64,000 nt of DNA from a virus, in IMG/VR virus record IMGVR_UViG_3300026549_000035, positions 32,918 to 96,917 of that record. One strand, written 5' to 3'. Numbering within the stretch: the first letter of the stretch is position 1; the number at the start of each line of letters is the position of its first letter. The position numbers and the translations under genes were made by a program. The notes under the pieces are model-generated. The model saw nothing but the letters and a program-made list of their open reading frames with translations, had not been told where the DNA came from and searched no databases. Shown one piece after another: positions 38,687 through 63,802 of this stretch.

Positions 38687-39023
38687 ACCCACTGCCAAAG
38701 TTCCATGTTTAAGAGCAGAACGTATACCCTCTTCTGGAATGTAACCTGCCATAGTATGATTTTCATACATAAATTTAGCAGAATTTGGATTTTGAGAACA
38801 AATCCATTCAAAACGTTCAAGTAAAGAATCTTTTGCATCAAAAATAGCTTGATCCAAAATCTTTAAAAATACTTCTACAATATCATCATCATATTCACTG
38901 TCAAAAACTTCTTTTGCTTCCATTGCTAAAGTAGGAAGGATAATTGTAACAGGACAAATATTTCCTCTACCATCTTTTAACTGACCAAAACCATTAATAT
39001 CCCAACCATTTGCAGTTCTACAC
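38687..39023 (-). CDS. nrdD: NrdD exon 2
   Basis: CRTANGWDINGFGQLKDGRGNICPVTIILPTLAMEAKE…ALKHGTLAVG. Joined to exon 1 it restores the conserved MGCR motif (…STMG|CRT…). Confidence 0.65.
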
Positions 39024-39830
39024 ATGTTTACCTAATGTTGCCATTAGCACTGACTATATCTTCTATCTTTTTATTAAGATAGCCTTCCGCTTCGAATATG
39101 TGCCTATCTCATATTCTACTCCCTTACATTCATCAGGGATAGTCGATACAGGTTTTTAATCTTTATCATATTTCCAAATATATCCATAAGCTGTTTTTTG
39201 TTTATTATTTAAACAATAATTAATTCCAACATTTTTAGATTCATTTCCTAAAAATCTAGCTGCTTCTCTTGCTGTTTGGAATCTTTTTAATAATTGTCCA
39301 TTTTTATTATACATTAAAACATCAGCAACATATTTAGAATTTTTATTACCTTTTCCTTTTTCTGAAATAATTTCTTTAATATAATCAGAATGTTTATGAT
39401 ATTCAATACCGCCTAGATCAGCATTATATCCATTTGGTAGTAAAGAATTATACTTTTGAATATATTCACGTTCTATTTTTGATATTTCATTATCTTTTAT
39501 ATTTGTTAAAAGTATTTCAAAAGAAAAATTTTCAATTCCATTTGCCTATATTGCTTTTCCTATAAATGATTTAGAACTTGGTTTTTTATGTTCTGCGAAT
39601 CGTTCATATGGATTTCTATTTGTAATACCTATATAATTTTTATTATTTAATAAATTTGTAATTTTATATAAACTATACATTTTATCACCTTCTCTTTTTA
39701 AGATGATAAAGATTAAACTTCCCACGGTCTCATCCGCATGGGACCTAACCGTTAGCGCAGTCACATTATTTGCGGCCGCACACCCTCAGGCGAGGTTCAA
39801 AAGGTTTTAGATGAGCTATAGTTTCCACTT
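39024..39830 (-). mobile_element. group I intron (IA2-like 'GCTAACGG' family) in nrdD carrying a GIY-YIG homing endonuclease gene
   Basis: The 5' exon ends …ATGGGT. The intron carries …GCGCTAACGGTTAGGTCCCATGCGGATGAGACCGTGGGAAG… (compare T4 td …AACGGGGAACC…AATCCCGTG…). After the ORF come CCTGTATCGACTATCCC…ATAGTCAGTGC then a hairpin, ending G. Confidence 0.65.
39157..39680 (-). CDS. GIY-YIG homing endonuclease, about 174 aa
   Basis: MYSLYKITNLLNNKNYIGITNRNPYERFAEHKK…NGYNADLGG…KTAYGYIWKYDKD. The start is anchored by track ORF 39546..39764. The 3' end coordinate is approximate. Confidence 0.75.
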
Positions 39831-41096
39831 ACCCATCGTTGAGAAATAAGTTCTTGGGTCATTTCGATCATATCCAGCATTACCAGACCAATCAACATTA
39901 GCATAATTTGGATATAATCTCTTAGCAGTAGATTGTAAAGCTAATTGATATAAATCGTAATTGGGGTCTCCCGGTTTACGATTAACTCCCTTCATACATT
40001 GGAAAATTCCACAAGGGAAAATTGAAGTTCTATAATGTTTTCCTAATCCTTCAATAGACACATCTAATAAAGCTTTAATTACCATTCGACCTTCTGAACT
40101 AGTGCAAGTTCCATAATTAATAGAAGTAAATGGAAGTTGATTTCCACTTCTGGACTGTAGAGTATTTAAATTATGATACATACCTTCTGCAGCTTGGTGG
40201 GCTTCTCTTTTAGTCATTTTAATCGCAAAATTATATACTCGCTCATTATATGCTTTCCATTCTGGATCATCAATGCTATAATCTTTCGCATTTTTTGCCA
40301 TATTGACAATTTCATAATCGGCTTGAGACCAATTTTTATCTTCAAGGAATTCCCAACCATCTATATAGTGCTTTACAAAACTTTTACGCACATATGGAAC
40401 CATTGTCCAATCTAAATGAGTTGCAGAAACTCCACCAAACTATTGTAAGCTTTGTAACTAGAAAATAACCGCAACCAATTGGAAAGCAGTTTCTAATGCT
40501 CCAGCAGTTCGAACATCCGTTTGACGAGTGTTAAATCCTTCTGCTAACAAATCATCAAAAGGAATACTTAAACAGTTATGAGATCCAACATAATAACTAC
40601 CTAAATCATGGATATAGTTTCTATTATTAATATGATTGTAACAAGCTTTATCAGATATAATAAAATCTAAAGCTAATTTTTTAGCTACAACATCCATTGC
40701 TTCGCCAGTTCTTCCTCCAAAAGAGTTCTCATCTACATTAGCATTTTGCTTTTGAATGTTTTTTGCATCTAGCTTTTCTCTAATAGCATCAATAAAATCA
40801 TGTTGATAATTACGAGCTACCTCTTTTTTATAACGATATCGAATATATGCACGAGCCACATCAAGACGCTCAGAGCGCATTAAATATTCTTCTACTAAAT
40901 CTTGAATTTTTTCAATTGTGCAGAGGTCATTATCTTGAGATTTAAAATAATCTTCAATTTCATCTGCAATATCTTTAGCAGTATCTTCTTCATAGAGTTT
41001 TCCATCTACTTCAAGAAAAGCAGCATTAATGGCATCTATAATTTTTTGTTTATCAAATGTAACAAGAGTTTTATCTCTTTTTTCTACATTAATCAT
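39831..41096 (-). CDS. nrdD: NrdD exon 1 (ATP-cone + N-terminal catalytic region), about 422 aa
   Basis: RBS AAGGAGTG then MINVEKRDKTLVTFDKQKIIDAINAAF… is an ATP-cone. …NRNYIHDLGSYYVGSHNCLSIPFDDLL…LQSRSGNQLPFTSINYGT…YFSTMG follows. Track ORFs 40458..41096 and 39816..40403 are in frame and joined via TAGs. Confidence 0.75.
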
Positions 41097-41174
41097 AAAA
41101 ATTCACTCCTTATACAAAATATTGTGTTTTACTAAAAAACTCTATCAATATATATGGTGTTTTGGATTGAATTT

Positions 41175-41408
41175 TTAACTATTGTTGTCCTAATCCGCAA
41201 TGAGATAGTTAATATACCAAATTGCTTTTTTTAAATCTTCTACACCATTTTTATATTTCCATCGCCACAAATACTTAATTGCATTTGCTGTACAGAAAGA
41301 TTCTATTCCCTCAAGACCTATTGTTGCAGCCTTGAGGGCTTCTATACATTCAATTCCACCCTCGTTGTAATGACGAGGATGATTTACATTATCATTTTGA
41401 ATTATCAT
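41175..41408 (-). CDS. DUF3310-family phage protein, about 77 aa
   Basis: …HPRHYNEGGIECIEALKAATIGLEGIESFCTANAIKYLWRWKYKNG… matches the HPxHY…IEcI signature. Confidence 0.55.
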
Positions 41409-41436
41409 TGTATATTTACTCCTCTGTTGAAATTAT

Positions 41437-41847
41437 TAATTCATATGGAGATATATAAAACATTTCTGGTTTATAGTCTGCATATAAAACAGTTCTTTTC
41501 TAATAATAAATTTTTATATCAAGATTGTTATTTAAACAATACCAATGATATTTTACATTTTTAAATTCTGGTAAAAAACGATATTCTTGTCCAGGCTTAA
41601 TAATTATATTTTTTAATATCATTTTTTCTAAAGGAATTTCTATATAAGCACCATAATCACCAATAACAACACGAGAATATCCTTTAGCTAAAAAATGACC
41701 ATATTTATCATATATTTTACAATTAAGATTTCCGTTCAAAGAGAAACAAGACGGAAGTTCTTTTTCGTATTGTCTTCTTTGTTTTATAGATAATTCTTTC
41801 GGTAAAGGTTTATAATGATATTGATCTACTAATTGTTGAATTGTCAT
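41437..41847 (-). CDS. hypothetical protein, about 136 aa
   Basis: Track ORF 41500..41847 extends through TAG. The start overlaps the dnaE stop (TAATG). Confidence 0.4.
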
Positions 41848-43250
41848 TATTCTCCATTCTCTCCTTTATATCTTTCACTCTAAAGAATTAAACTACCATC
41901 ATCATTAACTTCTAAAATATGATATAATTGATGCCCAACAGAAGAAGCATATTTTTTAGTTACAAAAGTATCTCCAAGTCTAATTCCTTGCACCATAATC
42001 ATATTACCTCTATTAAAAAAACTTTTTTCTATTACATGTTTAACTCCGTCTAATCCTTTTTCTGAAATTTGTTTATCAAATAATGCAAAATATTCTTTTC
42101 TGAATTTTACATTAACAACTCCGTTAGTCGTTAAAATTGTTACTGTACCTTTTGTCTTATTTTTAGCAATACAAGTTCCACAAATACGACAAAGTTTAAA
42201 GATATGAATAGGCTTATTCTTTTTATAAAAGGTTTTCTCTATTTCAGGTTCTTCAGGTAAATTATAAAAATTTTTTAAACCATATCTTTCAAAATCAACC
42301 TTTGCTAATTCATGTTCATGTTTATAGAAGCAAAGAACTTCCATTTCCCAAGCAGATAAATTCGCCTTTCCCGCATATTTATCCCAATCTGCTTTAAATA
42401 TTCGAGTATTTAATTCAGATAAAATTTCTTGTCCATCTTGCGCAAGCCATTCTCTAAAAACATCCATATAAGATTGATATATTTTATCCCATTTTTTCAT
42501 ATTTAACGTATTATCTGAGTTAATTAAATTAGCGACTTCTATTTCTACTAAAAAATCAATTGCTCGATTATCAACATGATAACATACTGAATCATTCTTT
42601 ACTTTACATATAGCTTTTAAATATCTATTAAATTCATAAACTCTAAAAGCTAATTTTCTTTCTTCTGTATCTAATGGAACTAAGTCTTGTTTTAATAAAG
42701 TTGGAAAATTTTGTAATGTTAATCTAGCTTTTTTATCACAAGTTTCCCATATATACCAAGCCATAGCTTTTTTTCTATCCATCATTTCATCAAAAGCTCC
42801 CGCTTTAATTAATGATATCATAGGTTGTTTTTTTGGTTTTACTTTTTGATAGAAATCTTTTATTGAACTATATGGACGATTTTTAATAATCTGATTCACA
42901 AAATCATCGTTTACATTTAATAAAGCTTTCATTCCAAAAAGAATTCGATTGTTTTCTACATCAGGTTTAAATCCAAAATCAGAAGTATTAATATTTACTA
43001 GACTAACATTAATACCTGCATTAATAATTTCATTCAAAGCTTTTGCAACTTTACCATAATCAGTACTTGCTGCTTTTTTTTGAGTTTCATTTTCTTCTGA
43101 TTCTAATACATTTTCATCATCGTCATCTTCTTCTAATGAACCACTGTTTACAACTAAGCAAGCCGTATCCCAATATATAGGATTCCAATGAGTTCCTAAA
43201 TATAAAGTTTGCGCTCCAACAAAACTATATGCTAAAGCGTGTATGCATAA
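41847..43250 (-). CDS. dnaE: DNA polymerase III alpha (DnaE-type) exon 3
   Basis: …CIHALAYSFVGAQTLYLGTHWNPIYWDTACL… aligns with DnaE HSAAYALVSYQTAWLKAHYP…, and the C-terminal region runs to TAA at about 41847. The 5' boundary is approximate. Confidence 0.65.
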
Positions 43251-44462
43251 TTAATTTATTACTGACTATTTTTTACAGGTGTTGTAGTGAAGTTGGCAAA
43301 ACTTCTTACCTGCACACTGTTTCCCAATGCGTATCAATAGCATCAGTACTCTCTGTCTAACCAGAGATAGTCGATACAACATTTCTTATTTAAAAGGTTT
43401 ATTATATTATTTATTTCTTAAAGGATATTGATATTCTTTTTGTTTATGCGAACGTCCAGAATTAATATTTTTTACAGTAGAATAAGATTTTCCCCATTTA
43501 TCAGCAATTTTTTTTAATGATATATCAGAAGTTAAAATATCTTTAATAATTCCTTTTACCCAAATTTCATTATCTTGTTTTCTACAGCCTTTATTACAAA
43601 GAGGATATTTTTCTTCTTTATCATAAAAATATTTTCCTGTATTTATCATAGATAAAAATCCAGCGCTTTTTATATTAAAATCTTTTTGAATAGAACTATA
43701 TTTTTCTCCAGATTTTATTCTTTTTTTAATTTCTTTAATTTCTTTTTGAGAAAATTTACTTTTAGCATTTTTCTTTAAAGGATAATCAAAGTCAGGATTA
43801 AAAAAATTAGTTCCTGTATTGATATTTACTAAAAAAGTTCTTTTTAACTTTGGAGAATACAAATTCTCAATATCATCATATTCTTCATCATTTAACAATC
43901 TTTTTTGAATATCTTTAATCTCATTCTCTGTAAATAATTTTGAGCGTTTTAATTTTTCTTCATAGCTTAAAGGAGGCTTTGGACATCCCTCTCCACCAAT
44001 AGTTACATTATATCCATTTTCATCTTTTAAAGAATGATAATAAGCAATAAAAAATTTTTCTCTTTCATTTATAAAATCTTGACTTTCTTCGTCTGCAATC
44101 TCTTCTAAAACTTCATAATCAAAATTTTCTATGCCATATTTTCTAATTGCGCAATGAAAAGGAAGCCAATAGCCAAAAGCTTTTTCATTAAATGATTCAC
44201 TTTTATGTCCATTATATCTTTTTTGTAAATTATTCGTTTGTCCAATATAACAATGTCCATTTATTTTATTTGTAAATTTATAAATATAAGTCATCTTTTT
44301 TCACTCCTCTCATGGATATTTGAAAAATATAATATCTCTTTTAAATAGATTTGTCACGAGATTTTACCCTCGTTAGCAATTATTTTATTTATTTGCCAAA
44401 TAAATTATCAAAATAATTACCCCCGTGATGAGCGGGTTAAGTGTGTAAGCGCCATTACAACG
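43251..44462 (-). mobile_element. group I intron (IA2-like family) in dnaE carrying a GIY-YIG homing endonuclease gene
   Basis: It splits the conserved DnaE motif GY(S/G)F|N-K-S-H-S-A-A-Y. The 5' part carries …GCTAACGAGGGTAAAATCTCGTGACAAATC…. The 3' part carries …TTGTATCGACTATCTC…AAAAATAGTCAGTAATAAATTAATTATG. Confidence 0.6.
43407..44294 (-). CDS. GIY-YIG homing endonuclease, 295 aa, TAG-free
   Basis: ORF track: MTYIYKFTNKINGHCYIGQTNNLQKRYNGHK…GYNVTIGGEG…, with repeated C-terminal modules. Confidence 0.85.
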   Translation of the reverse strand: MTYIYKFTNKINGHCYIGQTNNLQKRYNGHKSESFNEKAFGYWLPFHCAIRKYGIENFDYEVLEEIADEESQDFINEREKFFIAYYHSLKDENGYNVTIGGEGCPKPPLSYEEKLKRSKLFTENEIKDIQKRLLNDEEYDDIENLYSPKLKRTFLVNINTGTNFFNPDFDYPLKKNAKSKFSQKEIKEIKKRIKSGEKYSSIQKDFNIKSAGFLSMINTGKYFYDKEEKYPLCNKGCRKQDNEIWVKGIIKDILTSDISLKKIADKWGKSYSTVKNINSGRSHKQKEYQYPLRNK

Positions 44463-45665
44463 CTAAATGAATAACCCATCTGAGGTCCAGCTCCGTAACG
44501 CCAAACATATTGACCTAATTTTTCACTTTTAGCTTGCCGCAAAACCTTATCTCTTAATTCAGGAATTTTATCCATCAATTTTTTACCAACCACTTTACGA
44601 GCTTTGTTAGCATCTCCTAAACTAAAATTACAAATATTAGGATCCATTAACATTTTCATAAGCTGCTCTTGGCTTGGTGGAACTCCATATGACTATTTAA
44701 AATATGGTTCTAATATTTTTTGTTCAGTTTTAGTTAAACCAAAATCATCCATTTCTTTATACCATAAAGAAATATCATTTTTATAACGATAATATTTATC
44801 TATAGGACGTTCTTCGCCTTCTTCACCCATCAATCTCATTAATCCATTTGCATCAGCCATTTCAAGAATAGATTGAGGTTTAAGAAGTTTAGCGGTTTTT
44901 ACACCCTCTGTGCCTTCAAATTGGAAGGTATTAATAACAGACATCTTTCCTAATGCTTCCCATATTTTTTTATCAGTTTCTATTGGAAGAACATTTGGAT
45001 GAAGATATTTATTATAAATTTCTCGAAGAGATAAATCTTTTTCAATTTCACCGTCTTCTTGAAGAAATTGAATTGTTTGAACAATTTTATCTTGTGCTTC
45101 AGTTACAAGAAAATCATATTTTGTTAATCCCATATATTCGGCATCATGTAAATCATATTGAGTAATAATTTTGCCTTTTGGAGTTTTCATAAAAGCACTA
45201 TGTTCAAATGGATCACCATCAAATAAAACAATTCCAGAAGCATGAGAACTTCTTTTATTTATTGTTCCTTCAATAGCTAAAATAATATCTAATAATCCGG
45301 GGTAATTATTTACTTCATAAATAAAAGTTTTTACAGGTTTTCTATGTTTTTCTTCATTACCATGTACAACATCTTTAATACTCCATAAAAATCCTCGTTC
45401 TTGTGGAATTAAAGAAGCCATATACTGGGCTTGGTCAACATCGATACCATCTGGATACTCTTCACTACGATAACCTCTACATGCGGTTAAAACAGCAGAC
45501 TTAGAACCTTCTGTCCCAAAAGTAGAAATACGAGCACAACCAAAAATTTCTTTTGCCCATTCTGGAACATCATTATTAAACATTTTACTGCGTTCAGTTG
45601 CAATTTTTTGAAGAATTAAATTACATTTAGATGGACATATATCTATATCAATATCCTTTTATTAT
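44463..45665 (-). CDS. dnaE: DNA polymerase III alpha (DnaE-type) exon 2
   Basis: DIDIDICPSK…ISTFGTEGSKSAVLTACRGY…AIEGTINKRSSHASGIVLFDGDP…GLTKYDFL…LGDANKARKVVGKK…GYSF. These are the DnaE core motifs (PDIDIDF, RHASTHAAGVV, AMGKKK). Boundaries are approximate. Confidence 0.65.
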
Positions 45666-46815
45666 TGGACTATATCTTTTACAATAAACTACTGAGAATA
45701 ATTACTTCATTTATTGTAAGAGTGCGCTACGGAATAGTGCTTATCTCTATTCCTCTATATTAGTCTCTACACTCCAATAAAAACCTTTATATAATGTTTT
45801 ATTTTTAATGGCTTTATCTAAACCTGTATGACCTTTCATATTTAAAAAATCTAATACTGCTGTTTTAGCATTAAAAATTTTTATTAAATTATAATCTTTA
45901 TCATACATATAAACTTTTTTACCATTAATAGCATTATTTTTACTTTTTCCATACATTCCATTTTTTACTCCTGAAGTTTTTCCTTTACTATGTTCAGACA
46001 TTAATTTTTTAGATTCTTCAGTATGATGTTTTCCATACATTCCATTTTTTGCTCCTTTAGTAGCCTCTGACATAGTTTTACGATATTCTTCAGTTTTCAT
46101 ATAAGATGTATCTCTATTTTTACGAATTTTTTCTTTAGTCTCTTCTGTCAAATGAATACCATATCTAGGATTATTTTTTCCTTTATATTTATTACTCATT
46201 TTTTGTGAATATTTTTCTTTTTCTTCTTTACTCCATCCAGCTCTTGTATTACCACCATTTCCGCCTTCGTGAATATTATAAAAATTTTCATCTTGAACTG
46301 CGTTAAAAGCAGAAATAAATTCTCTTTCTTTATTAAAATTTTCTTCTTCATTAGATGAAATAAAAAGAATTTCTTTTTTAAAATATTCTATGCCTATTTT
46401 TTTTATATCTTCTTTTAACTTAGTTCCACTACCTAAGTATTTATCATCTAATTCTCCGTAGTGTTTTCCGATGTATTTTTTACCAGTTAAAAGATTTGTT
46501 GTTAAATAAATATAATGTTGTTTCATATTATCACCCTTTCATTATTATATGATTAAAGTGATATTGACTTTGACAGACATTGACCAAGATTTTTATATAG
46601 TTTTTATTAAAGCACGGTATTACGTGTCTAGCCTTTTCAGGACCACTCGCTCTCTTAGTCAGCTGATTCGCATATTATAAAATATATATAATATCTTATT
46701 TTGCTGATACCGTTAGCTTGTGCTTTACCAATTTTTGACAGGAATTTTTGGTAAGCCACAAACACCTCTTAGCAGAGTTCACACTCTTTTTTTACAACTC
46801 GGCAATATCAATATT
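45666..46815 (-). mobile_element. group I intron (diverged member of the IA2-like family) in dnaE at the PDIDIDF motif, carrying a GIY-YIG homing endonuclease gene
   Basis: Exon 1 …ERIELGSL and exon 2 DIDIDIC… rebuild the conserved DnaE motif. The 5' part carries …GCTAACGGTATCAGC…ATACCGTGCTTTAAT…. The 3' part carries …ATATAGTCCAATAATAAAAGG. The repeated GAATTTTTGGTAA motif also occurs at 46725-46760. Confidence 0.55.
45747..46526 (-). CDS. GIY-YIG homing endonuclease with NUMOD3-like repeats, 259 aa, TAG-free
   Basis: ORF track: MKQHYIYLTTNLLTGKKYIGKHYG…NIHEGGNGG… plus repeated NxxYGxHxTEEtK modules. Confidence 0.85.
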   Translation of the reverse strand: MKQHYIYLTTNLLTGKKYIGKHYGELDDKYLGSGTKLKEDIKKIGIEYFKKEILFISSNEEENFNKEREFISAFNAVQDENFYNIHEGGNGGNTRAGWSKEEKEKYSQKMSNKYKGKNNPRYGIHLTEETKEKIRKNRDTSYMKTEEYRKTMSEATKGAKNGMYGKHHTEESKKLMSEHSKGKTSGVKNGMYGKSKNNAINGKKVYMYDKDYNLIKIFNAKTAVLDFLNMKGHTGLDKAIKNKTLYKGFYWSVETNIEE

Positions 46816-48206
46816 AGACTACCGAGTTCGATTCTCTCATCATTTAAATATCTAAAGAAAGGAAGCTCCCATTCTATTGGATCTAATTGAGTTATTCCCA
46901 TAAGATAATGGTTTAACGCAGCGCAAGAAGAACCTCTACCTGCGCCAACCATAGATCCTGAATCCCATATTAAATCAATATAATGTTGTAAAGTATTAGG
47001 ATAACGAAACATATTTGTTTCTAATTTTTCACTAATAATACTTTTTACTCTTGCTTCTTCTTCTAATTCATCTATATACTTAGATTCACCAGTTTCATTA
47101 TAATTATTCCAACCATGACCAATTTCATCTAATTTTTCCCAACACTGATTTACCCAATATCTATCTTGAATATCATCTGATGTAAATAATTTTTTTAATG
47201 TCGGATAGTTAGTCATATCATCGGCATAATCATTATTAACACTCCACCATGCTGATTTAGGATAATCTTTAACTTCTACAGAAGGAATGTCTTGTTTATG
47301 AAATAATGAATAAGGCTTTATTTTATTTTGTATATCTAATGTATTTTTTAATATCCACTGACAATCTTCAATAGGATAACTATTTTTTAATAAATCAAAT
47401 ACTTCTGAATAATTCATTAAATAAGTAAATTCATAAAAGGCATCTACTTCTCGGTCGCCTTCTTTTGAATTTAAATATGCTTTATGGACTTGTCTTTCTT
47501 GTTTTGTTAAATAATGTGCGTCTGTGCCTACCACCAATTTAATATCATATGCTTTCGATATTTTTAATAAAGCTTGATTAACTGAAATTTGATCAGATGA
47601 AGTGCCCGGCGCACACTCAAGATAAAAATCATCTTTAAATAAATCTTTACAAAATAAAAGGAAATTATGAATTTTTTGATAATAAATCATAGCATTATTA
47701 TCATCATTAATTTTTCTAGCCATTAAATATAATAATATATTCTAAGGAAGTTCTCCTCCTATACATGCAGATGTTGCAATTAAATGACCAGAAAATTTAT
47801 TTACAATCTCTTTTAATTCTGTTTTTAAAGTAGGAACACGTTCAATTTTACGATCTACATAAGAATTTATCCATGCCCTTGAGCTTAATTCTCTAAGTGC
47901 TCTATGACCAATGGCATCTTTCGCAACTAAAATAAAGTGATAATATTTTTGACCTCTATCTCGAGATTCTGTTAAATAAATCTCATTCCCAAGCGCAAGT
48001 TTAAAATTAGGATGTTCTTTCTAAATAGACTTCATATGTTTTTCCGCTCTTACATGAGCAGATAAACATTCGTGATCTGTTATAGCAATACCAGATAAAC
48101 CTAACTCTATTGCTTTATCAATTAAACCTTCGGGCTGATTAATACTATCTATTAAGCGAATATTACTATAAATTGTATGATTATGACAACCAAAATAAGA
48201 CTGCAT
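46816..48206 (-). CDS. dnaE: DNA polymerase III alpha (DnaE-type) exon 1 (PHP domain + fingers), about 465 aa
   Basis: MQSYFGCHNHTIYSNIRLIDS…GLSGIAITDHECLSAH… is a PHP domain. Track ORFs 48021..48206 and 46779..47723 are in frame and bridged by TAG-containing sequence (…GAGRGSSCAALNHYLMGITQLDPIEWELPFFRYLNDERIELGSL). Confidence 0.7.
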
Positions 48207-48269
48207 ATTCTCTTTTTCCGCCCTTTCTTTTTTATTCTTTTTATATTATAAAATATATTTTTATAAAAG

Positions 48270-49406
48270 TCAAGCCACAACAACGAGTCGATCTATTGCA
48301 CGAGTAACTCCAGTATACATATATTTACGACGTTCATCTGGATCTCTAGGCCATCCGGGCTCTTGGAATAGTAAAACTTTATTCCATTCGCTACCTTGAG
48401 CTTTCCAAACGGTAATTGCATATCCAAAATTAAAGTGTAACGGTATTCTTTTATCTTTTATCTGTTTATATATAATATATTCTTCTTTACTTGTCAAAGA
48501 AGGCTTTCCAGTAAAAAGTTCTGAATAATCAGCACATAGCCCTTCAAATTCTTCGCCTTCTTCATCTCCGTATATAGTAGTAGTTAAAACTGGAACTGAA
48601 AGATCTTCTTTTCTTAACCAAAAAGGATAATTCCAATTTTCGACATTAAATTCTTTAATAGAACCAATAACTCCATTAGTTAAAGGATTCTCATGATTTG
48701 ATAATATTTCCCATTCGTTATGTAAATTGATAACTTTATCTCCAACTTGAGGCTGATTTGGATCAAATCCATAAGATGCTCTAACTTGTTGATTTAATGA
48801 ATTTTTAGTTTGTCTTGTTGCACATAATATCTAATCCGCCCAAGTCATCATTGAAACAGAAACTTCTCCGCGAGGAATAATCATAACCTGTTCTTTAGCA
48901 CATGGAAAAGCCATAATTGGTTTTCCTTCTCTTACATGCATAGATAAACGAATAATTTCACTCTCTTGGGCTTGACGCATAATCTCATCTAAAAAGATAT
49001 GAGGATTGTCTAAGACATGATTATTTGGATCTTCTTCCATAGATGTTTTATTCCATATTGGCGGCAACTGTTCAGGGTCTCCGCAAGCAAGAATATAGAA
49101 GTTATGACTACATAATAAATCCCACATTTTTTTTGGAAGCATTGATATTTCATCTACTACTACAACTTTAATTTTTAAGTCTATCTCAAAAGGCTTTTTA
49201 GGAGTGAAGGCATATTTACCACTTGGCATTAACTTTGCATGATATAATAATTTATGCGCTGTCATTGAACCAGGACATCCTTTATTTTTTAAAACATTTG
49301 CAGCTTTTCCAGTGTAAGCTACATATCGGACTTCTGATTCATCTAACTCCATTGCCGCAATAATAAATTTTATTAGAGTTGATTTTCCTGTACCTGCCTT
49401 AAGCAT
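48270..49406 (-). CDS. Dda/RecD-like superfamily-1 DNA helicase, about 378 aa
   Basis: Walker A LKAGTGKST, Walker B VVVDEISML, and C-terminal GYAITVWKAQGSEW…YTGVTRA. Track ORFs 48831..49406 and 48270..48497 are in frame and joined through TAGs. The true start may be an upstream TTG at about 49457. Confidence 0.75.
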
Positions 49407-49477
49407 AGCCAGATATGCAAGTATATTTTTCTCCTGCTTTATATCTGGCTAAAGCAATACGTAAACCTTCTTCCTAT

Positions 49478-49993
49478 TTATGAGTTAATTCCAAGATTTA
49501 CTTCCTCCTCTCTTATTATATCTTCTATTTTCCATAATCCATCATGCAATTCTCTATGACAATTCGCACAAATTAAAATACATTTTTTACTTTCTTCTAC
49601 TGCGTCTTTTAATCGAAAATGATCATTACTAATAGTAAAATCTTTTTGAGAAGGGTTTAAATGATGAAATTCTAAAGCCTTTAAACATTTGTCATATCCA
49701 CATTTTTGGCAATATCCACCACGCTATTGTTTAATTTTGGCTAAAAAATCTCCTCTTTTTAACTACTATCCTTCTGGCATACACTCATAACAACAAGTTC
49801 GTTGATTTGCAGAAGAACTCTTTGGCTAAAATTCTTTTCCACAAATTAAACAAGTTTTATGAACATCTTTCATTTCCTTTTTCTATAAGATACGTAATTT
49901 ACGAGCCTCATTTTCGCAATGACGACTACAATATTTAGCCGTATTTTTTTTACATTCAAAATCTTTGTGACAAATAACACACTATTTTATCAT
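49478..49993 (-). CDS. HNH endonuclease with multiple CxxC zinc knuckles, about 171 aa
   Basis: MIKQCVICHKDFECKK…CLICGKEF…CYECM…CQKCGYDKCLKALEFHHLNP…CILICANCHRELHDG. About 6 TAGs are present, with RBS AAAGGAGAA. Confidence 0.6.
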
Positions 49994-50073
49994 AATAAAT
50001 TTTCTCCTTTTATATTTTTCTATTATATATATTTTTTATAAAAAGAAAAATTTAGTGGCTTTGTCCAAAAGGT

Positions 50074-50436
50074 TTAGCCAGTAAGATTGCGTCTTCTTGT
50101 TTCCGAGTAAGGACCATCTTCTTTTCTCACCACCCAATCTATATAAGGTTGAAATTGAATGGTATATCGACTAGAAAAATAATCCACTATATCATCAATT
50201 TCTAAATTATCAAACATATAAATACCATAAATGTCTTTAAAACGTCTATCATATTCATTTTCTATTGTTTCAACTAAATTTACTAAACTTCTGCCTTCAG
50301 TTATAAAATTACTAAAATTATGCTTATCTAAACATTCTATATTATATATAAAATCTTCAGAAACTAAATTTTCACATTGTTTATTTTTAATGTATTGTGA
50401 ACGAGCAGTTCTTTTATATCTATCTTCAGAACTCAT
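50074..50436 (-). CDS. hypothetical protein, 120 aa
   Basis: ORF track. It contains no TAG and ends TAA. Confidence 0.45.
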   Translation of the reverse strand: MSSEDRYKRTARSQYIKNKQCENLVSEDFIYNIECLDKHNFSNFITEGRSLVNLVETIENEYDRRFKDIYGIYMFDNLEIDDIVDYFSSRYTIQFQPYIDWVVRKEDGPYSETRRRNLTG

Positions 50437-50511
50437 ATAAAACTCCTTTTTACATTTTTCTATATATATTATATCATATTCTTTATATTAATTCAACTAA
50501 AAAAGCATCTT

Positions 50512-50847
50512 TTATTTATTAGATATAAAAAAATTATCAATATAGTCATAGGCATTTTCATTTAAAAAATCGAAAACACCATTTTCATTTGATTTCTCGG
50601 GTTTTTCAATCGTTTCCGATCGGAGCAGCTCTTTTTCTTCTTTATTTAATAAAATAGAATTAGAATCAATATCTTTAAAAACTTCTTTTATTTCTCTAAA
50701 TTCTCCATTAGGTGTAAATAAAGAAATATTCATCTTAGATAAAGCTTCACTAACTCTATTTAATCCCTAAGAAATTTCTTGCATACTTACAGCACTTTTT
50801 TGAGATATATTAGATAAAACTTCTACAACTTCAGAGGTAGAAAGCAT
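50512..50847 (-). CDS. hypothetical protein, about 111 aa
   Basis: RBS GGGGAAGATAAAG then ATG at about 50847. It joins the track ORF via one TAG. Confidence 0.4.
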
Positions 50848-50862
50848 CTTTATCTTCCCCTT

Positions 50863-52004
50863 TTAAAAATAATAATTAAATTCATTTGTAATTTCATATT
50901 CCTCAATAATAATCTAAGGACTAAAATTTCCATTCCATTCATTTAAATTACAAGTTCCAACAACATTAATTGTTTTATGTCCTGTTTCAGAATATAACCT
51001 ATTAAACTCATCTTGACTTGAATTAAATTTAATTAATGTTAAATTGCCAGGTAAAATAATTTTTAGTGTCGGTCTTTTATCTGGTGACATTAATATTAAA
51101 TTATCTTTATGAACTGAAATATTTTCTATAGCGACTTGAGGTTCTGGTAAGCCTTGTCCCCAATAACTTGCAAGTCCTCCTAAATTCATAATATCTTCTT
51201 TATATAATCCTACTTCTCCTGCAGACCAAATAAAATCTACTCTATAACAATTAGTAAAATCAAAATCTTTTAATTCTCTATCTATATATTCTTTAAAGGC
51301 TTCTAAATTTTTATCTAAAATACTAATACCAAAGGCACTTGCATGCCCCTAAGCATATTCTACTAAATTACTATTGGCTAAAAATTCTCTCATATTTTCT
51401 AATTTAGAATAAGTAGCATTACGACCAGACCCTCGCCAAGAATAAGACAATACTTCGCCAGTATTTTCATCAACTTCTATATGACGATTAAGAATCAAAA
51501 CTGGTCGCATATATTTACCCATAATCTAATTTGCAATTAAACCAGTTAAATTTTCTGAAACAGGTTCTTCTAATTGCACAATAATTATAGGATGTTCTAA
51601 CAAATTATTCTATTGAATTAATTCCTCAATAACTGTTAAATTATAATCTCTAACTCTTGTCTATCTATTTTTAATATTTTTACAATTTCTGCAAGCCTAA
51701 TCGATTCTAGGTTCTAGCTAACCTTTTGCTCCCCTTTTATTAGAGGGTATTAATTCATATGCTTTAAAATCTAACATAGACTCAAATAAAAGCATTTTTT
51801 CATCTAAACTGCCGACTCTAATAGTTGCATTAATATATGGCGCTATATAGAATGAAATTCCAAATGGTGTTACTTCTCCTCTAAGAGAATAAGCCTACTC
51901 TTCGACAAAAGCAGAAATAAAGGGGTTCTTTATATTATTTTTACTTGTTCCAAGAGTGATCAATTCTCTAGTTTCTAAATTTCTTAAATCCATCATATCT
52001 GCTA
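50863..52004 (-). CDS. recJ: RecJ-like 5'-3' ssDNA exonuclease exon 2
   Basis: …VADMMDLRNLETRELITLGTSKNN…FGISFYIAPYINATIRVGSLDEK… matches the RecJ …TVADVVPL…LGFALGPRLNAAGRL region. It continues through the track ORF 50914..51189 to TAA at about 50863. The 5' boundary is approximate. Confidence 0.65.
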
Positions 52005-53070
52005 CTCACGAAAATCCAGTGTTTCCACTGGCGCTGACTATTTTTTAATATTATAAAAATAATATTATATCTCTTTCGGTTTTCAAATGCTTCGTTTCCT
52101 AAAACATTACTATGTATCAATAATAGCCCTACTCCCCTGCATTTCAACATAAGGGATAGTCGATACAGGCTTCATTTTATAGAAGAATAACTTTCTTTTA
52201 AAGCAATTCTTCTTACTGTAGATTTGGATAAAAAATTATATATTTTTTGTATATCTACAAAACTTTCTCCATTATTATATCTTTTTCGAATATCAAGAAC
52301 TTGTTCTCTAGAGCATTTGGCTCTTCCATTTTTAACCCCTTGATTAGCCTCTGAAGAATATTCTGCTCTAGTTTTACTATTAGTCGGGATAAGATATTCT
52401 GCTCCTATATTAGGATAGCCATGCCCAAGCCATACTTTTTCAAAACTTCCAAACGGATGATTTTTATAATCTTGATAAACATCTTTTTTTCGCTCTTTTA
52501 AAAAACGTCTTTTTCTAATATCTAAAACTTCTTTATTAGTAAAAACCGCTCTTGAATTATTTTCTCCGTTTTGATTACAAGCATCTCCGCCTTTAGTTAA
52601 ATTATATCCAATCTATTTATTGTTAGAATTATAAAAACTAATCCAATACTTTTCTCGTTCTTCCATAATAGATAAATTATTTATAAATTCTAATACTTCA
52701 ACCTTAGTAATCTTTCCGTATTTTTTAATAGCAAGATCACAAGGATATAATTTCTAATGAGAATTATGATTATGCTCTTTCATTCTTCTTTTTAAATCTA
52801 TAGTGCAGCCTATATAAATTTTATTATTTGGATAATTAATTTTGTAAATACAAGCCATATTAGGCTATAATTGAGAAACTTTATAAATCATATAATTTTT
52901 TTCCTTTCTTTCAGTTTAAAAATGATTCCCACGAGATTATCATGTATAATAGAAATTCATCATGTCATCATGTCTTCTATTATATTTAGACTTCCTCGTT
53001 AGCCAATTAATTAAAATTGACCCCTCTGATAAAAGGAAAAGATATATTAGGCCAGTTTACTTTTAGCCCT
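52005..53070 (-). mobile_element. group I intron (IA2-like family) in recJ carrying a GIY-YIG homing endonuclease gene
   Basis: It splits the RecJ motif LDLVA(L/V)G|T(V)AD. The 5' part carries …GGCTAACGAGGAAGTC…ATAATCTCGTGGGAATC…. After the ORF stop come AGCCTGTATCGACTATCCC…AAAAATAGTCAGCGCCAGTGGAAACACTGGATTTTCGTGAG. Confidence 0.6.
52172..52858 (-). CDS. GIY-YIG homing endonuclease, about 228 aa
   Basis: MACIYKINYPNNKIYIGCTIDLKRRMKEHNHNSH[Q]KLYPCDLAIKKYG…GYNLTKGGD…, with 2 TAGs and TGA stop immediately followed by the conserved intron motif. Confidence 0.75.
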
Positions 53071-53686
53071 ACTGCGACTAAATCTAATAAATGATTTGCA
53101 CAACGCTTTTCTGGTGGTAGCAGTGAATCAATATACTAGCAAAATTTATAAACAATACCAACACCAGATAAACTTTTGTTAGGGTAATCACTTAATTGAT
53201 TATTAATAATACAAGCATTTTCTGAAACTTTTTCTGCTTCGTGATGATCTAATACCAATACATCAATACCCTTTTCTCTTAGCTATTTATGTTGTTCATA
53301 ATCATTGCTACTTGAGTCTGGGGCAATTACTAATTTAACATCTTCTGGAATAGTTTCTACAATAAGACCATGCTCTTTACCATCGTGAATACGATAAGAA
53401 ATATTCTACTGGGCATGACCTGGCGCAAACATATTTATATAGTTAATAAGTGCGGCCGCCGATGTATAGCCATCTACATCGCTATCTACCTATATAAAAA
53501 TTTTATCACCAGCTACTAAATGCTTAATAAGCATTTCTGCGCCTTGTTGCATATTATCAAGATAGGAGGGGTCTAAAATATCTTCTTTACAAGTAAGTAA
53601 ATATCTTTCAATTTCATCGGGTTTAATTCCTCTATTAACGAAAACCCATTCGATAGCTTTAAGATCTGACTAATCTATTGGAATTT
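53071..53686 (-). CDS. recJ: RecJ-like exonuclease exon 1 (DHH domain)
   Basis: MKPEIPID…LVAGDKIFI[Q]VDSDVDGYTSAAALINYI…VLVLDHHEAE…HLLDLVAVG carries the DHH motifs I-III. The start ATG overlaps the upstream gene's TGA. Confidence 0.7.
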
Positions 53687-53692
53687 CAGGTT

Positions 53693-54031
53693 TCATAAGT
53701 TTATATTCCATGTGCCAAACTCTCCTTCTAATTCTCCTTCACCATAAAAATCATAGGCTTGATATGGACAAAATTTAGTAGCAGGACGTACAAAAGTATT
53801 AAAATCTTCAATAGAAACATTTCGTTCAACTAAAGATATATTACATCCATGTCCTCTAGAATTATCATCAATTTTTAAAAGTTTCCATATATCGCCATTT
53901 TGAAAAACGATTTTATCTGGATATGAAAAAATTTTATCTATTCTTATATTATTTTTTGCATAATCATCTACTAATTGTTGTAATCGACTTTTTCCTTTTT
54001 CTTTATTATAATACCATATAATACCATACAT
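53693..54031 (-). CDS. hypothetical protein, 112 aa
   Basis: ORF track. Its start overlaps the primase stop (TAATG). Confidence 0.45.
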   Translation of the reverse strand: MYGIIWYYNKEKGKSRLQQLVDDYAKNNIRIDKIFSYPDKIVFQNGDIWKLLKIDDNSRGHGCNISLVERNVSIEDFNTFVRPATKFCPYQAYDFYGEGELEGEFGTWNINL

Positions 54032-55167
54032 TAATATAATTTCACTCTTTCTTTAAATAATTTTAAAAATACTTCCTATCCATGGTCTATCGGCGCAGAT
54101 TTATAATCTGTAATTTTATGTTTATCAATAATACAAGATATGTTAACATAATTCTTATATTTTTTTGTAATTTTTTTTAAATTTTTAATTAAATGGATAA
54201 ATTCATCATCGCCTAAATTTTGAAACTACCTATCAAAGGCAATAATTATTTCTTGCGCACCAGCATCAATTAGGAGCTAAGCTTGATATGCAGAAAAACT
54301 ACTGCCGCAACAGGCTACTGAAATATCATTATCTATTCCAAAATAGCTTTGGTATTTAAGAGAACTTTTTTCACCTTCAAATACTATTGCTTTTTTAATT
54401 TTTGGAATAATACAACGACTATTGTTAAAATTATATAAATTTAAACCAAGAGGATGATTATATAAAATTCCATTTACTTTAATTGGTCTATACTTACCAT
54501 ATAATTCAATATCTTCTTCAACAAAATTACGTCCACGTAATCCTATAAAACGATTATCTTTATCATAATGTGGAATAGTAATCTATTCTCCTCCTGGATA
54601 ATATCCAATTTTAGCTCGGTTTAATACTTCTTGAGATATACCTTCTTCTAACCAAGGGGTTAATTTTATTTTATAATTAAATCTATCTAAAATAGATTTA
54701 TCATATTCTTCTAATATGACATGAGGAGTTCCAGCCTGAATATCTTGAATACGAGAATAATTCGCTAAAATTTTCCAATCTTCTAGCCCTTTTTCTTTTG
54801 GACTATCTTCTTCTCTACCTGCTCTTCCAAAACGTCTAGCTATCCATCTTACAGCATCATTTAAGTCATATTTAATATTATGCTATAAATCCATAACTTT
54901 TATACATAACTAAAAAATATCAAATACAGGGTCTTCACAGCCTGTATAACATCTAAATAGACCAGTATTTTCATAATAATATAATTTACGGGAAGCTCCA
55001 TCATTTAATCTGTTATGACATATAGTTCGGGCGATGAGCCCAGTAGGACAATACTCTGGCTCACCACCCCATTCTTCAAGTAAATCATATACTTCATTAA
55101 TTGATAAACTTTCCCTTATTTCTTGTTTATCAAAAATTAACATTAGTAAAGAGTCACCTTCGTGCAA
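54031..55167 (-). CDS. DNA primase (CHC2 zinc finger + TOPRIM), about 378 aa
   Basis: Track ORF 54910..55167 (…YCPTGLIARTICHNRLNDGASRKLYYYENTGLFRCYTGC…, a CHC2 Zn finger) continues through TAGs into a TOPRIM-like region (…IVFEGEKSSLKY…AFDR[Q]F…) and ends TAA at about 54031. Confidence 0.65.
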
Positions 55168-55328
55168 TTATTTTTTAAACCACATTCACGATTTACATAA
55201 TCAATAAGATACTGTTGGATATTTAAATGCTTTTTATTTTTTCCACTTAACTTAATAAGGTCTTCTGCCATTGCTTCTGGCATTCTATATTCTACAGCAC
55301 CTGGTTTTAATAATTTTTCTTTTCCCAT
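55143..55328 (-). CDS. small hypothetical protein, 61 aa
   Basis: ORF track. It overlaps the primase start by about 25 nt. Confidence 0.35.
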   Translation of the reverse strand: MGKEKLLKPGAVEYRMPEAMAEDLIKLSGKNKKHLNIQQYLIDYVNRECGLKNNCTKVTLY

Positions 55329-55355
55329 AATTATTATTCTCCTTTAAAATTGTTT

Positions 55356-55875
55356 TTAATCTTCATCTTCATCATCTGGAAATGCACTTGCTATATGTAT
55401 ACGAGTATCATCAATTGGAATTAATTCATAATCCCATCCCGTTGCAAATAAAGGACGAATTCTGCATACTCCTAAATCTGCTTTACACCATAAATAAATT
55501 CCTTTATATCTACCTCGTCTATTTTTATAAACTGATATTTTAATTGTAGGTTTATCAAAGGTGCCTGTTGCTAAAATTTTTTCTAATCCAGTATAATCAT
55601 CTTCTTTTGCCATTAAAAGAATAGCTCCAAAGTCAATCTTATCTGCAATACTTTTTGCACCTCGAAGTAAATTTTGATCAGGTGTTTCACTTGTCTAATA
55701 ATCTCCATTTAATTGTGTAGCAGACATAATAAAAATACCTTCTCGATTACAAATATCTTTTAATCTATTAGATAACATAAATAAAATATTATCTTCACGA
55801 AGTTTTATTCCTCCACTTCTACGAGTAATTTCTTCAAGAATTTTCATAGAAGTATGTATATAATCATGACACGTT
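55356..55875 (-). CDS. dnaB: replicative DnaB-like helicase exon 2 (C-terminal RecA-fold part)
   Basis: …CHDYIHTSMKILEEITRRSGGIKLREDNILFMLSNRLKDICNREGIFIMSATQLNG…DFGAILLMAKEDDYTG…ISVYKNRRGRYKG…. The 5' boundary is approximate. Confidence 0.65.
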
Positions 55876-56186
55876 CTTCCTTTATTTCTAAAGGCGCTGA
55901 CTAACTCTTACTTGCGGTCGCAACCACAAGGACACCTTTTCGAAATGCGTATCAATAGCATTTCTACTCCCTCGCCCAGAAGGCAAAAGGGATAGTCGAT
56001 ACAGGTTCAAATATTTATTCAATTGAAAGAGAATGGATAAATATAAGTTTCCCACGGGATTACCATGCTATTTTATAGTTTAGGCTTCCCCGTTAGCCTT
56101 ATTTATAGTTATAAATAAGACCCCGTTGATAAAACAGTAAAGTGTTTCATTCTCCCACACCCTTTTCGGGTTGAAGACATACTAAA
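55876..56186 (-). mobile_element. ORF-less group I intron (IA2-like family) in the dnaB-like helicase gene
   Basis: About 310 nt carrying …AAGGCTAACGGGGAAGCCTAAACTATAAAATAGCATGGTAATCCCGTGGGAAAC… then …GAACCTGTATCGACTATCCC…GCTATTGATACGCATT…AAGAGTTAGTCAGCGCC then a hairpin. It has the same core as the ORF-containing introns but no endonuclease ORF. Confidence 0.6.
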
Positions 56187-57204
56187 TCTAATGTTCACGA
56201 ATATTTTTCTTTATTTTATTTTCGATATCCTATAAAGAAAAATCTGGTAATAACTCTACATATAAAGAAGATTCTTTTAAAACTTCTGCGGCTATAATGA
56301 CACGCTCCTCTTCATCTCCTTCATATCTTCCATCTAAGATATGTCCTTCATCTACGTTAGATAAAAATGCTAACATCATTGTTTGAACTTCGCTCATTTC
56401 TTGTTCAGTTGCAATATATAATGTTGGCTAAGCTGGACCTGTCTTTATCCAACCAAAAATTTCATCATACATTTTATTACAGCCAATATAGCAGGCATCT
56501 GCTATCATAGATCTTGTCTTTCCGACACCTGTTGCGGCTGAGCGCAAATAGAATTTTTTAAGTCTAGCACCTCTAGTAACTGTATTAATAAGTGGACCAT
56601 ATAGAGGAACTCCAGCTTCAGGATTTTCTTTAAACCCTTGAATTAATTCTAAAATTCCTTCACCAGCTTGCTAAGCTTCATCTGCTACATCATCAACATA
56701 TGTCATCCTAATTTTTTCAATCTTTTGATCAATAGTATCTGCTATTTGAACTAAAGACATATTATCTAGTCTATCTTCTTGAAGCTATCTTTTTTTAGTA
56801 TCTAAGATATCATCTGGATCATATATGTCTGTTACAGAAACTCCATAGGCATCATACATTCTTAATAAAGTGAATTTTTTTAATCTATTATAGTAATAAT
56901 CAAAAGCGGCTGAATTTGAATTTTCAGCTATTTTTAATAACCACTCTTCGCCTTTTTCTTGCTTAAAGATTGCTTCGCTTTTTGGTCTTGAAGATAAAAA
57001 ATCTGAAATAGCTTTTAAATCAATTTTTTCTACACCTAATTCATGTAATTTATATATAGCTCCAAAAGCAATTTTATGAAATTTATCTGGGAAATCTTCT
57101 TCATTTACAACATATTTGTCTGTCAAGTCCAGAAGCTGTGGATTATTAAAAACATTTCCTATTACTTGGATAATTGCGGTTGTATCAATGTATTTGCTTG
57201 CCAC
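56187..57204 (-). CDS. dnaB: replicative DnaB-like helicase exon 1 (N-terminal domain + Walker A)
   Basis: GTG start with RBS AGAGGAGG. MASKYIDTTAIIQVIGNVFNNPQLLD… continues to …SAATGVGKTRSM…LYIATEQEMSEVQTMMLAF…KKNIREH. Track ORF 56785..57204 is extended through TAGs. Confidence 0.65.
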
Positions 57205-57403
57205 GGGCTTCGACCTCCTCTTGATCTAAAAATGTAAATCTTTTTCTTCTTATAGGCTCTCTTTTTGGAGGCTATATAATAATTTCCCTTACTTTTGGAA
57301 CATATGCAGAAATATCTTTTTCTTTATTCTTTTGGCTTAATAGCCATTTATTATAATAATATCTTTTAGCTTCTTCATATATCCATGGAACAATCGTGAT
57401 ACT
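57185..57403 (-). CDS. Zn-finger hypothetical protein exon 2
   Basis: SITIVPWIYEEAKRYYYNKWLLSQKNKEKDISAYVPKVREIII[Q]PPKREPIRRKRFTFLDQEEVEARGKQIH then TGA. It overlaps the dnaB-like gene start by about 20 nt. Confidence 0.45.
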
Positions 57404-58591
57404 CTTATGTTTTCATAAGCACTGACTATATCTTAATAAATTAAATATATTAATTTATAAAACCTGTTTCGAACTACGTATCAATAGTAGCCCTACTCTC
57501 CCGATCCGGAGATAGTCGATACAGCATTATTAATCATTATTGTCTAATGGGATAATTTAAATTATCTATATGATGAATTTTTCCACTATTAATCCTTCCT
57601 ATCGTGCTTGTAGAAAGATTAAATTTTTTTCCAATATCAGTAAAAGATAATTTCGTTGTTAATAATAATTGAATAATAGAATTATAATCTGTTGAAGTCT
57701 TTTTTCTTTTTTTGCGAATAGGATAAGAGTAATCTTTCTAAATATAAGTTATTCCTCTATTTATTTTTGAAATAGTAGTATAACTCACATTGTATTTTTT
57801 GGCAATTTCTTCTAAAGATAAAATATTTTCTTCTAAATCAACATATACCTCTTTTAAAGATTGGTTAGATGTAAATTTTGCAGAATAATTGTTAATTCCA
57901 CTTCCTGCCCCTTTCGGTTTAGGAGGTTTTCTCAATGGATAGTTTAAAAACTCATTATAATATCTTTTTCCTAAATTAATTTCACTAATTGCTTCTGGAG
58001 ACATATTGTATTTTGAAGCTATTTCATATATATATAATTCAGTATGATTTATTAATAAATCATATACTTCAGATAATGTTTTTTTGTTTAATTTAGCTGA
58101 TGAATTATATACTCCTAGAGCGGCTCCGTCTCCGCCGGCAGTCAAATTATATCCTTTTTCTTTATTATTAAAAGTATCGTAATATTTTATCCAATATCTT
58201 TCTTTATCTGCCATTTCTTTTCTGGAACAATTCTAACAATCTTCTAAAATTTTTACTTCATAATTGTATTTTCTCATAGCACAATGAACAGGTAATAAAT
58301 CATTATTTCTCGCATCTATTTTATGTTCTTTTATTCTATCTTTAATATTATTACTCATTCCAATATATCTTTTTTTATTGGAAAAATTAATGGAATAAAT
58401 TCCTCTTTTAATTTCTTGCTTATTCATAAATCCTCACCTCGTTTATATATGAATAAACAAGCAAGACAATTAATTAAACTTGCCACGGGATTACCATGCT
58501 TTTAAAGTTTAGGCTTCCCCGTTAGCTTTACCTGCAGCCGCAGGTAAAACCCCCTTGATGAAAGGGTAAAGGTTTTACAGGCATTGTTACA
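57404..58591 (-). mobile_element. group I intron (IA2-like family) in a Zn-finger gene carrying a GIY-YIG homing endonuclease gene
   Basis: The 5' exon ends …GGAATTGGT. The intron carries …GCTAACGGGGAAGCCTAAACTTTAAAAGCATGGTAATCCCGTGGCAAG…. After the ORF come GCTGTATCGACTATCTCC…AGATATAGTCAGTGCTTATGAAAACATAAG, then the exon. Confidence 0.6.
57537..58427 (-). CDS. GIY-YIG homing endonuclease, about 296 aa
   Basis: Track ORFs 58233..58427 (MNKQEIKRGIYSINFSNKKRYIGMSNN…) and 57738..58214 (…GYNLTAGGDG…) are in frame and joined by one TAG. C-terminal HTH repeats follow. Confidence 0.8.
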
Positions 58592-59052: not shown

Positions 59053-59061
59053 GTAAACTCC

Positions 59062-59262: not shown

Positions 59263-59291
59263 GTTTTTCCTTTTATATTATACTATATTTT

Positions 59292-59336: not shown

Positions 59337-59337
59337 A

Positions 59338-63738: not shown

Positions 63739-63802
63739 CTCTATTTATTTATAAAAGTATTAGCTATAAAATTAAATAAAAGTGGCCTGTTTTTAATAAA
63801 AA

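Follow-up and report, generated by a model that had tools for sequence, protein, structure and literature searches.

Related group I introns, most with GIY-YIG genes, in replication genes of an uncultured phage with TAG as a sense codon

Interrupted genes and a repeated motif

The IMG/VR virus record IMGVR_UViG_3300026549_000035 contains, in a stretch of 64,000 nucleotides (nt; positions 32,918 to 96,917 of the record, hereafter the window), a series of replication and nucleotide-supply genes that are broken by inserted DNA. A first-pass annotation had proposed that six of these insertions, in nrdD, dnaE (two), recJ, a dnaB-like helicase gene and a gene for a zinc-finger-like protein, form one family of IA2-like group I introns. 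We consider it very probable that five of these insertions are homologous introns of subgroup IA, of the type found in the td gene of phage T4, with a GIY-YIG endonuclease gene in four of them, and that the first dnaE insertion is a separate element.

The window has a G+C content of 28.7%, and TAG is a sense codon over its whole length (1–64000): with TAG taken as sense, open reading frames (ORFs) of at least 150 amino acids (aa) cover 54 kb, compared with 18 kb under the standard code. This had been overlooked in the first-pass annotation, as had the three introns of nrdD and the one of dut, and it accounts for the fragmented look of the exons and of a mechanical ORF list; the gene map becomes clear when TAG is read, by assumption, as Q. 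In-frame TAG codons are found in the replication genes (13 in recJ, 8 in dnaB) and in the endonuclease genes alike, at a density of 10.9 per 1000 codons in intron ORFs and free-standing endonuclease genes vs 9.0 in host genes. ARAGORN found no tRNA gene in the whole window, hence no suppressor tRNA is visible there. When 24 kb were compared with 50,697 phage records by Megablast, a single 68-nt match came back and nothing more; the phage therefore has no close cultured relative. Unless both the TAG reassignment and the introns are recognised, gene callers would shred nrdD, dnaE, recJ, dnaB and dut.

The 15-mer GGATAGTCGATACAG is present five times on the plus strand, at 39137, 43365, 52154, 55990 and 57510 (two mismatches or fewer), compared with 0.04 copies expected by chance, and none of 100 shuffles gave five. 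The same five copies had been noticed earlier, at positions within 5 nt of ours. Because every gene from 30 to 64 kb is on the minus strand, the RNA contains the motif as CUGUAUCGACUAUCC, and there it represents segment J6/7-P7-P7.1 of a group I ribozyme.

Family membership was assessed with R1, a covariance model of the intron 3' half that was built from 11 sequences, has 127 positions and spans the 3' strand of P6, P7, P7.1, P7.2, the 3' strand of P3, P8, the 3' strand of P7 and P9. A search of the window with R1, filters off, gave exactly five strong matches (71–115 bits), each on the minus strand; the next best reached 14.6 bits. Three are seed sequences of the model, namely the introns in the dnaB-like gene (114.6 bits), the zinc-finger gene (57393–57525, 114.1 bits) and nrdD (39021–39152, 108.5 bits); the non-seed introns in recJ (52005–52169) and at the second dnaE site (43236–43380) scored 87.6 and 71.2 bits. 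The family comprises these five members. The signature blocks that had been attributed to all six regions do not occur in every one of them. CCTGTATCGACTATCCC is exact in the nrdD, recJ and dnaB introns, takes the form GTTGTATCGACTATCTC in the second dnaE intron and GCTGTATCGACTATCTC in the zinc-finger intron, and is absent from the first dnaE intron, which has GCACTATTCCG instead. The block CGTGGGAA is replaced by CGTGACAA in the second dnaE intron, CGTGGCAA in the zinc-finger intron and CGTGCTTT in the first dnaE intron, and ATAGTCAG gives way to TTAGTCAG in the dnaB intron and ATAGTCCA in the first dnaE intron. The hairpin proposed to precede every 3' splice site (P9) is clear in four of the five members and has no counterpart in the first dnaE intron.

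The first dnaE intron (intron C; 46820..45656, minus strand, 1165 nt, junction between ERIELG and DIDIDI) scores 9.7 bits with R1 (E 0.8), and a search of Rfam with it gave no match. Drawn by hand, its fold has P1 (ACUCGGU/GCCGAGU), P4 (CGGUAU/AUACCG), P7 (ACUAU/AUAGU), P6 and P8, and no P7.1, P7.2, P9 or GUAUC in J6/7; as P7.1 and P7.2 are missing, the intron can at best belong to another group I type. The ORF within it (45741..46526, minus strand) matches Pfam NUMOD3 at 48.8 bits and has a weakly GIY-YIG-like N-terminus, its score against Pfam SegE_GIY-YIG (19.5 bits) being under that family's cut-off. One could still group all six regions together and regard this intron as too diverged for R1: it shares GCTAACGG...CCGTG (P4) and ATAGTC with the family, it has a hairpin between the P3 5' strand and GCUAA as the members do, and its ORF sits between two P6 strands and encodes a NUMOD3/GIY-YIG-like product. 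With a negligible R1 score, an empty Rfam search and a structure that is only hand-drawn and lacks four family elements, we think this quite unlikely; intron C is probably a different group I type and not a sixth member.

Splice sites, fold and covariation

Splice sites were placed so as to satisfy three rules: a U paired to G in P1 closes the 5' exon, the terminal intron nucleotide is G, and the reading frame is preserved. These rules gave nine introns, every one on the minus strand, which together are 9638 nt long, or 36.8% of 32383–58592. The U before the intron and the terminal G are found in all nine, and every spliced coding sequence stays in frame and, with TAG as sense, contains neither TAA nor TGA. 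A P1 closed by the U.G pair was drawn for introns A to F and for a further intron, G, and a P10 for A, B and D. Among the family members, intron A in nrdD (39830..39023, 808 nt) has its 5' core at 39830..39681 and its 3' core at 39155..39023, joins STMG to CRTANG and has P1 AUGGGU/GCUCAU and P10 UGUAG/CUAUA. Intron B, the second in dnaE and the most divergent member (44459..43246, 1214 nt), lies between GYSFSV and IHALAY with P1 AGCGU/GCGCU, and intron D in recJ (53064..52007, 1058 nt) between AVGL and VADMMDL with P1 GGGCU/GGCCU. Intron E, the ORF-less copy in the dnaB-like gene (56173..55870, 304 nt, with a 45-nt L6), separates YVF from HDYIHTS and splits a codon into TT and T, its predicted exon join being UAUGUCUU to UCAUGAUU. 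Intron F (58592..57395, 1198 nt) falls between GGIG and IVPWIY in the 180-aa zinc-finger-like gene. The rules and the reading frame shifted the limits first given for two of these, from 39024–39830 to 39830..39023 in nrdD and from 55876–56186 to 56173..55870 in dnaB.

The spliced host proteins align without gaps across their junctions to known structures: NrdD at three junctions, including that between RRVTG and YLTG, with 8p23_A; DnaB where YVF meets HDYI, at the Walker-B region, with 2q6t_A; RecJ between AVGL and VADMMDL with 8y30_A; and PolIII-alpha at both of its junctions (ERIELG to DIDIDI and GYSFSV to IHALAY) with 3e0d_A. Pfam confirmed DnaB/DnaB_C, dUTPase and DHH/RecJ_OB in the spliced products and gave no match for the 180-aa zinc-finger host protein. 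An intein reading was rejected: exon 1 read on into each insertion soon reaches TAA or TGA, and the intron ORFs are each equipped with an ATG and a sequence like a ribosome-binding site.

Some T4-type genes are split by free-standing homing endonuclease cassettes. Such cassettes might have divided the host genes here into separately translated fragments with no splicing at all, the sequences flanking each ORF then being endonuclease-associated DNA. Free-standing GIY-YIG genes do exist in the window (31250–32098 and 62890–63744), and splicing is itself deduced. However, the downstream exons begin in the middle of motifs, three of them mid-codon, and have no start codons; the U...G rule holds at the boundaries, together with pairings in P1 and P10; and the dnaB insertion has no ORF, yet it breaks the Walker-B region and brings a stop 30 codons into the intron. 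We regard cassettes as a highly improbable explanation, the more so as the flanks show compensatory changes of the RNA type.

These changes were counted in a broader set of copies. A scan of IMG/VR for CTGTATCGACTATCCC found at least 119 loci, and R1 matched 129 copies (121 distinct) in the window and 99 of these loci taken together, often with two to four per contig. Standard pairs occupy 97.7% of pair cells in this set, compared with 35–43% when the partners are slid, and 695 cells are changed on both sides, compared with 46–116. Compensatory change is present in 21 of the 26 pairs of R1, and the observed values were reached by none of 500 shuffles. P7.1 and P7.2 occur in all five members and show compensatory change in 10 of their 10 pairs (121 sequences); there is compensatory support for P8 and P9 as well.

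In the 5' half, P4, P5 and P6 were read in 31 distinct copies at positions set by conserved anchors and not by complementarity. Paired cells numbered 185 of 186 in P4, 84 of 93 in P5 and 93 of 93 in P6, with compensatory changes that include the P6 variants GGG/CCU, GGC/GCU and GAC/GUU. P3 is formed by NNNNCUUU near the 5' end and GAAAnGGNNNN after P7.2; its own strands pair at -8.08 kcal/mol vs -6.43 kcal/mol for mismatched strands, and none of 10000 permutations was as good. MAFFT alignments of the 5' half placed P3 and hairpin X out of register and no model was built from them, the support for this half coming instead from the position-anchored counts and the matched-versus-mismatched duplex test. 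The minimum-free-energy fold of the 304-nt dnaB intron alone has the same helices (z = -3.1), and the core helices are 95–100% paired in all five members. The five regions fold as a group I core, with covariation, and the core that had been proposed for them could be mapped from P3 to P9.

Several points weigh against this interpretation. Rfam gave no Intron_gpI (RF00028) match anywhere in the window at its gathering score (50 bits), and none even at E<=10 when 25 kb was searched at once. The positive control, T4 td, itself scores 40.3 bits and fails the gathering score, which is therefore not discriminating for this subgroup, and the ORF-less dnaB intron searched alone matches RF00028 at 25.4 bits (E 1.3e-4) over all 253 model positions. 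For these two reasons we do not count the missing Rfam matches against the introns. P7 (GACUA/UAGUC) is invariant and hence shows no covariation, partly because the locus search pattern included GACTATCCC, and the covariation alignment was fitted to the model structure, which favours pairing. Q for TAG is an assumed assignment. P9 is weak in the second dnaE intron, P1 comprises just 3–4 exon pairs in the dnaB and zinc-finger introns, and we infer splicing, and self-splicing, from the open colinear spliced frames and the intron-less alleles described below.

The last three points would also fit decayed introns that no longer splice, with the interrupted genes as pseudogenes in a defective or mis-assembled genome. 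This would require six replication and nucleotide-supply genes (nrdD, dnaE, recJ, dnaB, dut and the zinc-finger gene) all to be dead, yet each spliced frame is fully open with its catalytic motifs conserved, the core helices are paired in all five members, and same-site relatives in other contigs retain the fold. We find decay barely credible and prefer functional td-type introns. Each intron would then be transcribed within its host gene, and the RNA would fold into P1 and P3–P9 with P7.1 and P7.2. Exogenous guanosine, bound in P7, would attack after the U of the P1 U.G pair, and the released exon would in turn attack after the terminal G, restoring the reading frame.

Endonuclease genes and intron-less alleles

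The ORFs of introns A, B, D and F each lie between the P6 strands GGG and CCU, and all four products score above the Pfam GIY-YIG cut-off (22.6 bits). These genes, all on the minus strand, are 39156..39680 in nrdD (174 aa, one in-frame TAG, 40.6 bits), 43407..44294 in dnaE (295 aa, 32.3 bits), 52172..52891 in recJ (239 aa, three in-frame TAG, 40.0 bits) and 57537..58427 in the zinc-finger gene (296 aa, two in-frame TAG, 27.6 bits), the last with repeated helix-turn-helix (HTH) modules that match HTH families. At 27–41% identity to one another, the four endonucleases are only distant kin. By analogy with I-TevI, they may cut intron-less alleles of co-infecting relatives, and repair would then copy the intron in. 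The P6 loop that holds these genes lies outside the catalytic core.

In the dnaB intron, L6 is a 45-nt hairpin between ...CGTGGG and CCTGTATC, the interval that holds the ORFs of the other members, as the first-pass annotation had recognised. Its suggestion that this copy marks the site of endonuclease insertion holds for the position of the ORF and not for the direction of the event. In a relative (L070, IMGVR_UViG_3300026522_000187, 7267–7642) the nrdD intron at the same site has an ORF cut to its first ~5 and last ~7 codons, with ATGTATAGTTTATATA fused to TTTGGAAATATGATAAAGATTAA, the two ends of the endonuclease gene in the window nrdD intron. By this fusion, the L070 intron is a clean ORF-deletion derivative. 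ORF loss is therefore as possible as insertion for the dnaB copy.

A search of IMG/VR with the spliced DnaB segment returned 144 relatives, the best 80 of which are all uninterrupted, with a match of 894 nt or nearly so. The closest of these 80, L124 (IMGVR_UViG_3300032038_007184), is 98% identical in protein and about 95% identical in DNA (91–98%, depending on the segment). Compared with 51590–60798 of the window, it lacks the zinc-finger, dnaB and recJ introns, and its exons meet precisely where the junctions were predicted, joining ggaataggt to attgttcc, agtatgtttt to tcatgatt and gttggagt to agtagcag, respectively. At the dnaB site exactly the 304 nt are missing, and at the recJ site the 3' edge is exact. 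About 60 nt of L124 exon directly upstream of the recJ site have diverged beyond alignment, and the zinc-finger and dnaB sites have single substitutions at their flanks; this divergence could reflect co-conversion or target-site immunity.

The 3' halves of the window introns are 50–80% identical to their nearest copies in other contigs (70–80% for four of the five) and only 33–55% identical among themselves. By eye, introns at the same sites elsewhere share site-specific features with the window nrdD, recJ and dnaB introns. As the copies are nearer to those of other contigs than to their siblings, they represent old, site-specific lineages; a recent burst of spread inside this genome was considered and rejected on the same identities. 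Carriage of several copies is typical of this phage group, with contigs of up to ~200 kb, and at four IMG/VR loci (L008, L036, L076 and L093) three to four family copies lie within ~10–15 kb of a single contig. Together, these natural intron-plus, intron-minus and ORF-deleted alleles illustrate the cycle of endonuclease-gene gain and loss.

Likeness to known systems and other introns of the window

T4 td, the host of I-TevI and an IA2 intron, resembles the family in several respects. R1 matches its 3' half at 44.3 bits (E 5e-10). Both have P4 ACGGGG/CCCGU, P7 GACUA/UAGUC, P7.1 UCCC..GGGA followed by GUAG, and P7.2, with P7.1 and P7.2 homologous in position; in both, CGAAA precedes the P3 3' strand and is followed by P8 and P9. 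The two further agree in having a GIY-YIG gene in L6 and a host gene of phage nucleotide metabolism or replication. T4 td has the usual P1-P2-P3 order. Unlike td, the window family has no P2, the P3 5' strand coming ~6 nt after P1, and it has two covarying hairpins between the P3 5' strand and the GCUAA that leads into P4 (J3/4). One relative, L115, has the usual P1–P3 order. The family also differs from td in its P9, which is just one hairpin, usually capped by a GAAA loop, and is followed by ~8–10 nt to the terminal G and not by P9.1 and P9.2, and in the conserved UAUUGAUAC of L7.2. Some copies have an extra hairpin after P7.2, before the P3 3' strand; it is found in the recJ intron (52070–52110, minus strand) and in about half of the IMG/VR copies, with a covarying stem, a conserved loop UUUUAGGAAACGAAG and then UGAGAACCGAAA.

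Subgroup IA2 is defined by P7.1 and P7.2 between the P7 5' strand and the P3 3' strand, and an extended P9 domain (P9.0, P9.1 and P9.2) is given as a further feature (PMC4227781). The IA2-like label of the first-pass annotation stands for P7.1/P7.2 and for the similarity to td, and it does not extend to the P9 domain or to P2, both of which differ here. The two hairpins between P3 and P4 were considered as a novel feature and dropped, since P3.1, like P2, is a known optional pairing of group I introns (PMC3873408). P5 reads CCUAA(A/G)...(U/C)AUGG in the family. We take this sequence to resemble the 11-nt tetraloop receptor, which makes a contact between L9 and P5 plausible.

A family member is also present in a cultured phage, Enterococcus phage VRE9_3 (PP680569), where R1 scores 103.2 bits at 3006–3133, directly after an annotated homing endonuclease gene. 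The region is annotated as hypothetical proteins and not as an intron, and VRE9_3, unlike the window phage, uses the standard code. A second, td-like 3' core in this phage (3925–4036; 42.9 bits with R1) is likewise unannotated as an intron. In Staphylococcus phage Twort, orf142 and nrdE are multi-intron genes (cited in PMC3984707), and several related IA-type introns are found in one genome. By this description, the window phage is like Twort in having several related IA-type introns in a genome and more than one in a gene.

Intron-dense gut phages have been described. Jug phages have a mean of 18.5 group I introns per genome, with nrdD split in 95 of 104 genomes and splicing confirmed by metatranscriptome reads (PMC12880540), and crAss-like phages combine introns with alternative codes or stop-codon reassignment (PMC7886860). 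A group I intron endonuclease has also been noted in a recoded phage (Borges et al. preprint, 10.1101/2021.08.26.457843). The window phage is similar to the crAss-like and Jug phages in its many group I introns and endonuclease genes in nrdD, DNA polymerase and other essential genes. Unlike Jug phages (360–402 kb, standard code), it reads TAG as sense, and its relatives are contigs of up to ~200 kb. As intron-dense gut phages are already published, the introns reported here have low novelty; GIY-YIG-bearing group I introns in phage replication genes are likewise established, and the result is a clear but ordinary case of a known kind of mobile element that leaves current understanding unchanged.

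The absence of P2, the two hairpins between P3 and J3/4, the invariant UAUUGAUAC in L7.2, the optional UUUUAGGAAACGAAG module and the minimal P9 could tentatively set the family apart as a structural subclass of IA introns that is both distinct and abundant, although we think this rather doubtful. Such a subclass would have been missed by the curated Rfam threshold and would be left without annotation in isolates like VRE9_3 as well as in many large phages that have not been cultured (at least 119 IMG/VR loci). With R1 and the more than 100 related copies, a compact IA ribozyme of 304 nt now has a well-supported alignment.

At least four introns of the window are of types other than the family. 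The nrdD intron at 38686..37475 (P1 GUGGGU/GCCCAC) is a different group I type, with a match to RF00028 of 35.4 bits (E 4.8e-7) on a contiguous 5' core (38450–38720). Its GIY-YIG gene (37513–38424) is located in the 3' part and not in L6, and the product is ~30% identical over its full length to the proteins of the second dnaE and zinc-finger introns. The remaining nrdD intron (36925..35689) contains a LAGLIDADG ORF and cuts the glycyl-radical motif between RRVTG and YLTG, and the dut intron (33824..32383) contains an ORF with HTH repeats and joins LANGVG to IIDSDYY; all three are on the minus strand. The latter two have in common a 186-nt 3' core with 82% identity and a 20-nt block that stands before the ORF in one and after it in the other. 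From these shared segments they appear to constitute a further intron family, the ORFs of which lie in different loops.

Both of the free-standing-looking GIY-YIG ORFs mentioned above (31250–32098 and 62890–63744) lie between genes on the minus strand and score above the Pfam cut-off. Another GIY-YIG-type ORF of free-standing appearance is found among structural genes on the plus strand (3678–4298), where it is recognised solely by IYxxxNKINNKVYIGQS.

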